Below, one piece after another: positions 25,366 through 26,877 of a DNA stretch of 64,000 bases. The first letter of the stretch is position 1. Every line of letters begins with the position of its first letter. Location: the NCBI GenBank assembly GCA_041905165.1, contig JAYRLR010000002.1, positions 235,859 through 299,858 on the forward strand, given 5' to 3'. The DNA comes from Mucilaginibacter sp. Lineage in GTDB: Bacteria; Bacteroidota; Bacteroidia; Sphingobacteriales; Sphingobacteriaceae. The notes below the pieces were generated by a model. It saw only the letters and a program-made list of their open reading frames with translations, was not told the DNA's origin and searched no databases. The translations under genes were made by a program, and so were the position numbers.

Positions 25366-25842
25366 TTATTCTAATGTGATTTGTCTTCTGATGCTTTCTT
25401 CCAAAGAGATAAACGTCTCGGTGCGTTGTATGCCCGATACACTTTGTATCTGCTCATTTAATACCTCGCGCAGGTGGTTGGTATCATGACAAACGATTTT
25501 TGCAAAAATGCTCCAGCTGCCTGTGGTGTAATGCAGCTCAACAATCTCGTTTATTTTCTTTAACTGTGTTACAGCATCCTGATACTGAGAGCCTTTCTCA
25601 AGGTAAATGCCGAGAAAAGCGGTGATGTCATAACCTAATTTTTGCGGATCGACCTCAAGGCTTGCGCCCTTAATAACACCCATTTCTTCGAGCTTTTTCA
25701 TACGTACGTGTATGGTTCCGCCCGAAACAATCAACTCCTTTGCTATCTCGGTATAGGGGGTAGTCGCGTTCTTCATCAGGATCGATAATATCTGAATATC
25801 GAGATTATCAATTTCTAAATTTTGAGCTTTTTTATGGGGCAT
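25366..25842 (-). CDS. Lrp/AsnC family transcriptional regulator
   Basis: 158 aa with an N-terminal HTH (LDIQILSILMKNATTPYTEIAKELIVSGGTIHVRMKKL) and a C-terminal RAM/AsnC-type ligand domain. Confidence 0.9.
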   Translation of the reverse strand: MPHKKAQNLEIDNLDIQILSILMKNATTPYTEIAKELIVSGGTIHVRMKKLEEMGVIKGASLEVDPQKLGYDITAFLGIYLEKGSQYQDAVTQLKKINEIVELHYTTGSWSIFAKIVCHDTNHLREVLNEQIQSVSGIQRTETFISLEESIRRQITLE

Positions 25843-25939
25843 AAAATGAAAAATCTATATTTTAATACAAGTTTAATTAAAATCTGAATAAAAATAAAAT
25901 TATTTCTTTGAAATATTTGCAAGAAATTCACAACTCCTT

Positions 25940-25947
25940 TAAATTTG
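25940..25947 (+). promoter_or_regulatory. Putative Bacteroidota sigma-A -7 box (TAnnTTTG) for the tRNA-like unit
   Basis: TAAATTTG lies at 25940-25947, with a TTG at 25916-25918 about 21 nt upstream. It sits about 50 nt before the first tRNA-like gene. Confidence 0.4.
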
Positions 25948-25995
25948 TATCAAGCAAATGACAAAATGCTTAACGTTCTTTAAAGAAAAAAACAC

Positions 25996-26111
25996 TGTTG
26001 GGTGGTGAAATTTTTGGCAGACACACCTCCTTGTCCCGGTGGCGGAGATCATGGGAAACTCTTAGCAATAAGAATAACCACTCTGTGAAGGTTCGACTCC
26101 TTCCCCAACAG
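25996..26111 (+). tRNA. Atypical tRNA-shaped gene, copy 1 (116 nt, GUC anticodon loop, ~44-nt variable region); not a standard decoder
   Basis: Acceptor stem TGTTGGG / CCCAACA with discriminator G. Core nucleotides U8, A14, G18G19, A21, U33 and G53-TTCGACT-C61 are all present. The D arm is GTG-AAATTTTTGGCAGA-CAC and the T arm is GAAGG-TTCGACT-CCTTC. The putative anticodon arm is CCTCC-TTGTCCC-GGTGG. The 44-nt variable region contains the GNRA hairpin TCTTA-GCAA-TAAGA. CCA is not encoded. Confidence 0.7.
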
Positions 26112-26135
26112 CACCCGAGCAATTCGGTTATATCC

Positions 26136-26250
26136 TGTAGGATGGTGAAATTTTGGCAGACACACCTCCCTGTCCCGGTGGCGGAGAACAATGGGAAATC
26201 TTAGCAATAAGAATAACCACTCCTTGAAGGTTCGACTCCTTCTCCTACAG
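26136..26250 (+). tRNA. Atypical tRNA-shaped gene, copy 2 (115 nt), paralog of copy 1
   Basis: Same architecture as copy 1. The acceptor stem TGTAGGA / TCCTACA differs from copy 1 at pairs 4:69 and 7:66, and both changes are compensatory. The anticodon loop is CTGTCCC. A 24-nt spacer with a small hairpin separates the copies. Confidence 0.7.
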
Positions 26251-26285
26251 CTCTTCTCATAATTTAGGTTTATAATTGGTTAGTA

Positions 26286-26318
26286 AAGGCCCCTGCCCAT
26301 CAGGGGCTTTGCTGTTTT
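26286..26318. terminator. Rho-independent terminator after the tRNA-like pair, possibly bidirectional
   Basis: GCCCCTG (26289-26295) pairs with CAGGGGC (26301-26307), the stem is extended by AAG/CTT, and it is followed by TTTGCTGTTTT. It lies between the plus-strand RNA genes and the 3' end of the minus-strand gene at 26353. Confidence 0.75.
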
Positions 26319-26352
26319 ATAAGGTTTCGTGTTTTTAGGTAAACCTGTGTTA

Positions 26353-26877
26353 TTAGGGTAACAGCCAAAATCGCCAGCCATTCCAATATTCATCGTAATA
26401 TGTATAAAATGTTTTGAATTGATATGTCAGCGGCAGGTTATGAGTTGATGCATAAGCTTCATATTCTTGCACACTGTTATATCTGACCCAATCACCGGTT
26501 GGTAATAGATAGTCGTAGTAACCAGTTTCAGAAGCTAAGCATAGGTGCTCATTGTATACAAAAAAACTTTCTACGGGCACTTGTTTTCGGCCGATATCTA
26601 AATAGGCATAGCCATCCGAGCTTCGCATAGTCTTATTATGTCCCAAGGGTAGTTTTGCCTCGTCGCCAAGGCCATGATTGCCATAATAGGTAAACGAGAA
26701 GATAAAAAGCAGAGTGGCTGTGGCAAGGTATATAGCTGTAAATCTGAGCCGATTTAAATGAGTATTACCGGTTAACCTTCCAATAGCAGTTAGTACAAAA
26801 AATATTATTAATGAATAAATACCGGATTGGAGTGCTATCTTAAAAATTAGGAATCCGAAATGAAACAGCGTAAACAT
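26353..26877 (-). CDS. Hypothetical membrane-anchored protein
   Basis: 174 aa with three predicted N-terminal hydrophobic helices and an aromatic-rich C-terminal domain. No recognised motif. Confidence 0.6.
   Translation of the reverse strand: MFTLFHFGFLIFKIALQSGIYSLIIFFVLTAIGRLTGNTHLNRLRFTAIYLATATLLFIFSFTYYGNHGLGDEAKLPLGHNKTMRSSDGYAYLDIGRKQVPVESFFVYNEHLCLASETGYYDYLLPTGDWVRYNSVQEYEAYASTHNLPLTYQFKTFYTYYDEYWNGWRFWLLP

Follow-up and report, generated by a model that had tools for sequence, protein, structure and literature searches.

Class II tRNAs combine a 7-bp acceptor, a 5-bp T stem, a 3-bp D stem, and an A15:U48 pair with a variable arm between positions 44 and 48 that is roughly 25 nt or less. 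The two tandem tRNA-shaped units that are the subject of this analysis lie in a 64,000-nucleotide stretch of a Mucilaginibacter sp. contig (JAYRLR010000002.1; "the window" means this whole stretch). They share these helices and the placement of the arm but extend the arm itself to 44 nt, and chromosomal members of their family have 37 to 76 nt, with a conserved bulge, internal loop, and cap. To our knowledge, this is two to three times longer than in any known decoding tRNA. Bacterial tRNA-Asp is a second point of comparison: its identity set is G73, G10, G34, U35, C36, and C38, and its strictly conserved G1-C72 pair contributes to recognition by aspartyl-tRNA synthetase (AspRS) and acts as an antideterminant for the amidotransferase, for which U1-A72 of tRNA(Asn) is the determinant (PMC9976931). 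The window family has the YUGUCNC loop, G34, U35, C36, C38, G73, G10, and G2:C71 of tRNA-Asp but differs from it in U1:A72, a class II body, a non-A position 37, a U-U mismatch in the anticodon stem, and the giant arm. With the transamidation substrates tRNA(Asn) and tRNA(Gln) it shares U1:A72 and G73, along with a link to AsnC on the window side; unlike tRNA(Asn), it carries GUC rather than GUU, a large D loop, and the giant arm.

Other known systems resemble the locus in part. G73 excludes tRNA-Leu and tRNA-Tyr, which have A73 and lack the GUC anticodon, although the D loop (GGUGRAA..GGCAGACAC) is like that of class II tRNA-Leu, and where the tRNA-Ser set calls for G73, C72, C11-G24, and G30-C40, the window units have A72, U11:A24, and C30:G40. 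In Escherichia coli, asnC and asnA diverge across a 151-nt gap; an AsnC ortholog diverges here at a median of 154 nt, but its neighbor is an RNA operon instead of the synthetase-like enzyme AsnA. Cyanophages P-SSM2 and P-SSM7 carry a "tRNA-Asn" with a "tRNA ligase" (T4-GC 194, phrog_29758). That RNA is of class II shape and has a homologous body (U1-G2-U3...A70-C71-A72-G73), with a D arm of the Leu type and U37 in a YUGUY loop, but differs in its 17-nt arm, its GUU anticodon, its passing of the Rfam tRNA model RF00005, and a synthetase core 8 nt upstream, which the chromosomal loci lack. Finally, tRNA mimics (the tmRNA domain, YrlA, viral 3' structures, and mascRNA) likewise use acceptor and T modules outside ordinary decoding. 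Each of these is circularly permuted or missing at least one arm of the cloverleaf, whereas the window RNA is a complete, normally ordered cloverleaf.

The window most likely holds a two-gene operon for an undescribed tRNA class with class II shape, an Asp-type anticodon loop, U1:A72, and a 44-nt arm. The locus is a conserved, structured tRNA-type gene with its own promoter, it is linked to asnC, and it is homologous to phage tRNAs encoded beside a synthetase core. The two units, each counted through the discriminator G73, are laid out as follows.

25996-26111, + strand: tRNA-like unit 1, Mucilaginibacter "type A" (sequence, BLASTN orthologs in other genera, and helix covariation)
25996-26002 / 26104-26110, + strand: unit 1 acceptor, TGTTGGG/CCCAACA
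26005-26024, + strand: unit 1 D arm (sequence)
26026-26042, + strand: unit 1 anticodon arm, GUC at 26033-26035, then C37 and C38
26043-26086, + strand: unit 1 variable arm, 44 nt
26087-26103, + strand: unit 1 T arm, GAAGG-TTCGACT-CCTTC, with G73 at 26111
26112-26135, + strand: spacer between the units, 24 nt, without a promoter motif
26136-26250, + strand: tRNA-like unit 2, "type B" (sequence; the A/B pair recurs throughout Mucilaginibacter)
26136-26142 / 26243-26249, + strand: unit 2 acceptor, TGTAGGA/TCCTACA
26145-26163, + strand: unit 2 D arm (sequence)
26165-26181, + strand: unit 2 anticodon arm, GUC at 26172-26174
26182-26225, + strand: unit 2 variable arm, 44 nt, with tip UCUUA-GCAA-UAAGA
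26226-26242, + strand: unit 2 T arm, with G73 at 26250

An earlier note on this DNA had described a pair of paralogous units differing at about 11 positions, three of them indels, and global alignment agrees in full (8 mismatches and 3 single-base gaps). Each unit consists of a 7-bp acceptor, U8-G9, a 3-bp D stem with a loop that is Leu-type, as the note had said, a 5-bp anticodon stem, and a 7-nt loop. The note's list of near-universal tRNA nucleotides (U8, A14, G18-G19, A21, U33, G53, T54-T55-C56, A58, and C61) is complete in both copies, and its acceptor stems are confirmed by the sequence, with pairs 4:69 and 7:66 differing between the copies by compensatory changes. Exactly 44 nt separate the anticodon stem from the T stem in both units, again as the note had it. 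The GNRA-capped TCTTA-GCAA-TAAGA hairpin and the closing helix GGAG/CTCT or GGAG/CTCC that it had folded by hand are also present, the hairpin varying with compensation across the family and usually keeping a GNRA cap, and the helix supported by family covariation. What the note left out were the Asp-type anticodon loop, U1:A72, the linkage to asnC, and the conserved 3' trailer.

Because single-sequence folding was uninformative (minimum free energy [MFE] z-scores of the units were -0.3 and -1.0, and the MFE structures disagreed between the copies), covariation is the basis of the structure given here. Homologous units were found in more than 120 genomes, the pattern scan of one genome per species giving at least 120 matches; family counts built on it are among the matches listed. 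Carriers include Mucilaginibacter, Pedobacter, Pelobium, Arcticibacter, Desertivirga, metagenome-assembled genomes (MAGs) of Sphingobacteriales, and seven MAGs of an uncultured lineage labeled Bacteroidaceae or Bacteroides. A segment-wise parse gave 158 distinct GUC-type sequences, and more than 150 distinct chromosomal copies were collected. In 49 diverse members, the cloverleaf and two arm helices were 93.5% paired and 19 of 28 pairs showed changes in both partners; 500 shuffles never attained the observed value on any of the five measures, and pairing in slid controls was 44 to 63%. When 150 chromosomal members were aligned by our covariance model, R1, the structure was 94.7% paired, with the arm helices at 91% and 97% and compensatory changes in 7 of their 8 pairs. 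All four cloverleaf helices were 81 to 100% paired in both alignments, and the acceptor, anticodon, and T stems changed on both sides, so the selection on RNA helices proposed from two copies is borne out family-wide. The D stem was invariant across the alignments; because the search patterns fixed the D stem and part of the anticodon loop, invariance there is partly ascertainment. Sequences free of the pattern (second copies beside pattern matches and the set aligned by the covariance model) give an equal picture.

R1 scored unit 1, which was in its training set, at 115.7 bits and unit 2 at 112.1 bits, and these were its only matches in the window. Ordinary tRNAs align to R1 over the full model length at 20 to 50 bits, which makes the fold of the window RNAs a tRNA fold. 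Near-invariant positions in chromosomal members are U1:A72, G2:C71, U3:A70, U8, G9, U48, the T arm, G73, and C74, together with the D arm GGUGAAA..GGCAGACAC; pair 1:72 is U:A in all 126 distinct chromosomal sequences. The tertiary nucleotides are kept in the 150-sequence consensus with a sole exception, U33, which is C in three members. The anticodon stem is CCUCC/GGUGG with a fixed U-U mismatch, or CCCUC/GGGGG in the Bacteroidaceae lineage. Paralogs are recognizable within genera: Mucilaginibacter has type A (acceptor UGUUGGG) and type B (UGUAGGA), of which the window has one each, and the second paralog of Pedobacter has a 67- to 76-nt arm.

The arm itself is modular. Among 134 distinct chromosomal members its length was 37, 39 to 45, 47, 51, 53, 67, or 72 to 76 nt. 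At the base is a 5-bp stem whose first pair is often open, followed by an A-rich bulge of 3 to 5 nt, a second module of 3 bp (UGG/CCA, UAG/CUA, or CAG/CUG), an internal loop (5' strand RAAA(Y), 3' strand (C/A)UAA; RAAA/YUAA overall), and a distal hairpin of variable length. Caps are mostly GNRA (GCAA in 47, GUAA in 17, and GAAA in 8) or UUCG. The bulge and internal loop refine the closing helix and hairpin described earlier. The claim that the variable region lies far outside known tRNA dimensions also stands for the chromosomal RNAs, but the family is not isolated, since phage relatives form a continuum down to 17 nt. The internal loop may fit the sequence signature of the UAA/GAN motif. A K-turn was considered and rejected by eye, as there are no tandem G-A pairs beside the bulge.

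These genes escape the usual tools. ARAGORN found no tRNA gene in the whole 64-kb window, in intron mode or otherwise, and called none of the 158 native GUC-type members; with the arm of unit 1 trimmed to 15 nt and three U's removed from the D loop, it called the unit tRNA-Asp(gtc). Rfam 15 gave no match at gathering score in the window (the RF00005 threshold is 29 bits), nothing tRNA-like at E ≤ 10 in positions 25850-26400 (551 nt), with no tmRNA or YrlA match, and no match at E ≤ 1 for two relatives (L084:498-604 and L002). BLASTN matched neither the window pair nor two viral relatives to anything in plasmid and cultured-phage collections. We found no description of these RNAs in the literature searched, so the earlier statement that no described family has this architecture holds for Rfam, ARAGORN, and that literature alike. 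One study reports generic tRNA-like candidates in viral contigs, one of which overlaps an ARAGORN tRNA-Asp call and may be of the GUU type described below (PMC10690425).

The consensus of the anticodon loop in the 150 chromosomal members is Y-U-G-U-C-N-C: UUGUCUC in 66, UUGUCCC in 47, UUGUCGC in 25, CUGUCUC in 7, UCGUCGC in 3, and CUGUCCC in 2. G34-U35-C36 and C38 are present in 150 of 150, and with G73 and G10 the full Asp identity set is invariant. Position 37 is mostly a pyrimidine (U in 73, C in 49, G in 28, and A in none), so the family departs from a purine at this site, and it likewise exceeds a variable region of about 4 to 24 nt. Because the identity set is invariant while A37, U33, and full stem pairing are relaxed, the constraint on the anticodon arm appears to fit recognition by AspRS better than it fits decoding.

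The surroundings of the two units are those of a short transcription unit facing a regulator gene.

25366-25842, - strand: AsnC ortholog, 158 aa, divergent from the RNA operon, start codon 153 nt from the 5' end of unit 1
25916-25947, + strand: Bacteroidetes-type promoter, -33 TTTG at 25916-25919, 20-nt spacer, and -7 TAAATTTG at 25940-25947
25948-25995, + strand: 5' leader, about 40 nt of which would be removed to give the U1 end
26251-26285, + strand: conserved 3' trailer, with AGGTTTATAATTGGTTAG at 26266-26283
26286-26320, + strand: intrinsic terminator from a terminator scan, hairpin 26286-26310, with loop (U)GCCCAUC(A) and a U tract

In 13 aligned intergenic regions, drawn from Mucilaginibacter, Pedobacter, Sphingobacteriales, and Bacteroidaceae MAGs, neither the TAnnTTTG box nor the TTTG upstream of it varies, and across loci the motif peaks 54 to 59 nt upstream of the mature 5' end. 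Past the -7 box, leader length ranges between 17 and 55 nt depending on the taxon, but the 5' end of the acceptor stays fixed, which implies 5' processing to U1. Second units in other genomes have no TAnnTTTG box in the upstream 100 nt, and since the spacer in the window also has no promoter motif, we read the two units as cotranscribed. The tRNA-Met, tRNA-Leu, and tRNA-Val genes of the same genome set do not encode CCA, and their trailers start with C, so the missing CCA of the tRNA-like units is normal for the host. Beyond the last unit, GGTTTATAATTGGTTAG is kept with three or fewer mismatches in 76 of 119 distinct trailers, typically starting 17 to 19 nt after G73; the trailer motif is invariant in a 12-taxon alignment, and the Bacteroidaceae copies have a plain terminator without it. 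The terminator stem covaries between taxa around its conserved loop. Processing of the tRNA type may set the trailer free as a small RNA of its own.

Two smaller observations concern the same transcript. Leader blocks common to Mucilaginibacter and Pedobacter are GTATCAAGCAA, just past the -7 box, and CGTTCTTTAA further on. A UGGUUAG in the trailer is complementary to CUAACCA in the arm (e.g., 26074-26080), and in Pedobacter an AGUUAG trailer goes with CUAACUA in the operon's last unit in 25 of 25 cases, all of one clade; the arm variants AUAAGCA and AUAACUG are not compensated, and pairing between trailer and arm is an unproven idea.

The regulator across the promoter is an AsnC by several measures. 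It has the Pfam HTH_AsnC-type and AsnC_trans_reg domains, is 46% identical to E. coli AsnC over its full length, and scores 179 bits (E = 4e-53) on the NCBIfam AsnC model PRK11179, far above Lrp and other subfamily models and below the 227-bit cutoff. Proteins of M. defluvii and M. sp. UR6-1 are 97% identical to it. Where loci were chosen by the RNA, a divergent AsnC ortholog, 55 to 100% identical to the window protein, lay 124 to 223 nt away (median, 154) in 109 of the 118 assessable among the matches listed (about 92%), 9 of the 118 having been reached via the regulator gene. Loci of regulator orthologs from other species all had one or two homologous units just upstream, and 80 metagenome loci chosen by the protein gave 67 with the RNA, 9 without it, and 4 that could not be assessed (67 of 76 assessable); this AsnC-based scan returned close relatives only, 71 to 93% identical. 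A search with the AsnC of a "Bacteroides sp." MAG toward model Bacteroides matched environmental sequences only. The genes around the RNA-asnC pair otherwise differ between genera. A few genomes have extra copies elsewhere, beside hscA-like, ribE-like, or glyS-like open reading frames (ORFs; by eye, from N-terminal sequences), and these extra copies also keep the full structure.

Two loci stand apart in arrangement. Pedobacter sp. SYSU D00535 (L180:3983-5599) has five tandem GUC-type copies with a period of about 370 nt, beside an hscA-like gene instead of asnC. In one Bacteroidaceae MAG (L130:5427-6866), the asnC beside the RNA is truncated to a 115-aa ORF, and the ORF across the RNA from it resembles, by eye only, an IS-type transposase.

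Relatives in viruses extend the family beyond the chromosome. An anticodon-free pattern scan of viral contigs, its groups and counts again being among the matches listed, gave a GUC-type group and a large GUU-type group; phage relatives as a whole have arms of 17 to 54 nt. GUU-type RNAs have the acceptor UCUGGGG..CCCCAGA-G-CCA, loops CUGUUAA, CUGUUUA, or UUGUUUC, and arms of 27 to 39 nt; 32 GUC-type loci in a second scan had arms of 23 to 54 nt, and four of the viral GUC-type RNAs (three distinct genes), with arms of 23 to 26 nt, are called tRNA-Asp by ARAGORN. R1 scores phage members at 62 to 110 bits, and U1..A72-G73, the D arm, and the YUGUY loop are common to them. At 38 GUU-type loci and at the GUC-type locus L071, the median distance between the RNA gene and the gene for a 265- to 300-aa protein is 7 nt, and phage RNAs are often 7 to 50 nt downstream of such a gene. 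This protein is the catalytic domain of a class IIb (Asp/Lys/Asn) synthetase (PF00152) without the anticodon-binding domain. It belongs to PHROG 29758, of unknown function, and in NCBIfam it weakly resembles asparaginyl-tRNA synthetase (AsnRS), archaeal asparagine synthetase A (AsnA), lysyl-tRNA synthetase (LysRS), EpmA, and nondiscriminating AspRS; the nearest solved structure is AsnRS (2xgt, E = 1.8e-10), followed by AspRS, LysRS, and archaeal AsnA. The phrog_29758 "tRNA ligase" family has more than 8,000 database candidates. Examples of the synthetase core are at L073:426-1331, L071:11716-12558, L250:1492-2289 (P-SSM7), and L249:1492-2295 (P-SSM2).

Among cultured phages, P-SSM2, P-SSM5, and P-SSM7 of Prochlorococcus carry the gene under the annotation "tRNA ligase" (gp198 in P-SSM2 and gp129 in P-SSM7); in PMC3037559 the cyanophage gene appears in the gene table only. 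P-SSM7 has an annotated 85-nt tRNA-Asn 8 nt downstream of the core, and P-SSM2 carries the same RNA at L249:2305-2390, which is not in the feature table shown. The cyanophage RNA has class II shape, a 17-nt arm, the loop CUGUUUA, and the acceptor UGUGAGG/CCUCACA-G, and its two copies score 52.5 and 52.8 bits on RF00005 and 62.7 and 67.6 bits on R1. At L071 and L256 (the latter also encoding a CHU_C-domain protein), the enzyme is followed by a GUC-type RNA with a 39-nt arm of the window architecture, scoring about 110 bits on R1. Residues conserved across GUU- and GUC-associated enzymes include all class II motifs, which suggests that the same amino acid is attached in both groups. Further enzyme homologs had no R1 match within 2.5 kb at 5 of 6 loci (3 of 4 distinct enzymes, 64 to 72% identical), so the coupling of enzyme to RNA is frequent but not universal, and no such core was found in plasmids. 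In L275, a viral cluster with about 20 tRNA genes, a canonical tRNA-Asp(gtc) occurs together with a long-arm GUC RNA (907-1013 and 3967), and thus the long-arm RNA is not a plain replacement for tRNA-Asp; a related cluster, L259, has the long-arm RNA with no canonical tRNA-Asp in the part examined.

Taken together, these observations lead us to propose, tentatively and with a probability of roughly 40%, that the window RNAs are specialized, aminoacylated, mostly nondecoding Asp/Asn carrier tRNAs under AsnC control. The transcript would be cut by tRNA-processing enzymes and CCA would be added, as for host tRNAs. Selection on the anticodon loop would reflect recognition by a synthetase and not decoding, with AspRS aspartylating the RNA through its identity set, and the amidotransferase would read U1:A72 as it does on Asp-tRNA(Asn). 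Such an RNA could serve as a dedicated aminoacyl carrier in asparagine or aspartate supply, most simply in tRNA-dependent conversion of Asp to Asn switched by AsnC; this role is suggested by U1:A72 and by a position opposite asnC, which is that of asnA in E. coli. With its RAAA/YUAA loop and GNRA cap, the giant arm may be an identity tag that recruits a partner, keeps the RNA out of normal tRNA traffic, or both.

Several observations weigh against a carrier role. The phage synthetase core was not found by tBLASTN in the window or in 120 chromosomal loci of 8 kb. U1:A72 in place of G1-C72 could weaken aspartylation, and the amidotransferase may read the large Leu-type D loop as an antideterminant. 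Nine asnC-linked loci have no tRNA-like unit at all (L337, L317, L340, L343, L347, L351-L353, and L355), yet they keep the divergent TAnnTTTG promoter, a leader hairpin, the trailer motif (..CCCTCCCTCAATTTAATATAGGTTTATAATTGGTTAGCG), and a terminator (L337:2265-2400, minus strand); their regulators are 75 to 77% identical to that of the window, and the next gene encodes 347 to 371 aa with no Pfam match. The link of AsnC may therefore be to the transcription unit or its trailer and not to the tRNA-like RNA. Phage members also sit inside ordinary tRNA clusters, where the short-armed ones look like working tRNAs, which favors a decoding role.

The decoding alternative, which we regard as doubtful, is that these are ordinary elongators, class II tRNA-Asp species that read Asp codons and tolerate a long arm; the arm could then be an identity or anti-identity element, for example against anticodon nucleases or for a dedicated synthetase. 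All tertiary nucleotides and standard 7/3/5/5 helices are kept, GUC is invariant, and besides the clustering of phage members just mentioned, short-armed relatives pass RF00005 at 52 to 53 bits, that of P-SSM7 being annotated as tRNA-Asn. Canonical tRNA-Asn occurs at no GUU-type locus and canonical tRNA-Asp at only one GUC-type locus. An elongator would, however, hardly be expected to have a position 37 that is never A, C at 33 in three members, a fixed U-U mismatch in the anticodon stem, and an arm of 37 to 76 nt, nor to be present at one or two copies per genome under a regulator's divergent promoter with U1:A72 replacing G1-C72; the single exceptional locus, L275, has the canonical tRNA-Asp in addition. 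These same relaxed decoding features would suit an uncharged mimic, either a decoy or sponge for some tRNA-binding protein (for example, a nuclease or a modifying enzyme reading U33-G34-U35) or a handle by which RNase P or RNase Z releases the trailer. The conserved trailer after the last unit (AGGUUUAUAAUUGGUUAG plus a hairpin with a conserved loop) fits such a handle, as does its survival in asnC-linked loci without a tRNA-like unit. We nevertheless think it unlikely: a mimic has no need for the full Asp identity set, G73, or a conserved 7-bp acceptor, the phage synthetase link would go unexplained, Bacteroidaceae copies have no trailer motif, and extra copies elsewhere keep the full structure.

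A narrower form of the carrier proposal, improbable in our judgment when taken with all its details, makes the RNA a nondecoding scaffold for asparagine synthesis: AsnC would switch it on when asparagine is low, AspRS would charge it, and the amidotransferase would convert Asp to Asn on it. The giant arm, non-A37, and weak anticodon stem would bar it from the ribosome, the product would feed the free asparagine pool or a dedicated acceptor, and the phage relatives would use the same scaffold in portable, anticodon-blind synthetase/tRNA pairs. At the far end, it is scarcely credible that the units are tRNA pseudogenes, mobile-element remnants, or part of an ORF (25998-26204 on the + strand or 25970-26191 on the - strand). 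Mechanical ORFs do overlap them and the MFE z-scores are unremarkable, but position, promoter, and terminator are conserved across families, six helices show compensatory substitutions, and arm lengths ignore the reading frame, so that covariation and synteny contradict both a pseudogene and a protein-coding reading.

If the proposed tRNA class is real, it would join Leu, Ser, Tyr, and Sec as a fifth long-armed kind (Asp/Asn), and no other known variable arm would come near its length. A conserved tRNA-type gene found throughout a bacterial family and in many phages escapes ARAGORN and Rfam. The phage scaffold and its synthetase core suggest natural orthogonal, anticodon-blind pairs, which is relevant to genetic-code engineering, and an RNA opposite AsnC in the place that asnA has in E. 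coli offers a testable tie between a tRNA-like RNA and amino acid metabolism or its regulation.

The viral contigs hold further tRNA variants. Contigs L031, L097, L047, L088, L116, and L021/L126 have tRNA-Leu-like genes with encoded CCA in which the anticodon loop is apparently split by an insertion of about 30 to 35 nt; these may be mini-introns or some other tRNA variant. Many other tRNA-like genes, in L028/L081, L033/L066, L025/L062, L024, L095, and L101, have a Leu-type D arm and 50 to 60 nt between the D and T arms; these belong to neither the GUC nor the GUU group, and dense arrays of R1 matches were also seen. ARAGORN reports a tmRNA* at L026:5460-5841, in a viral contig that also has the synthetase core, a GUU-type RNA, and a canonical tRNA-Asp.

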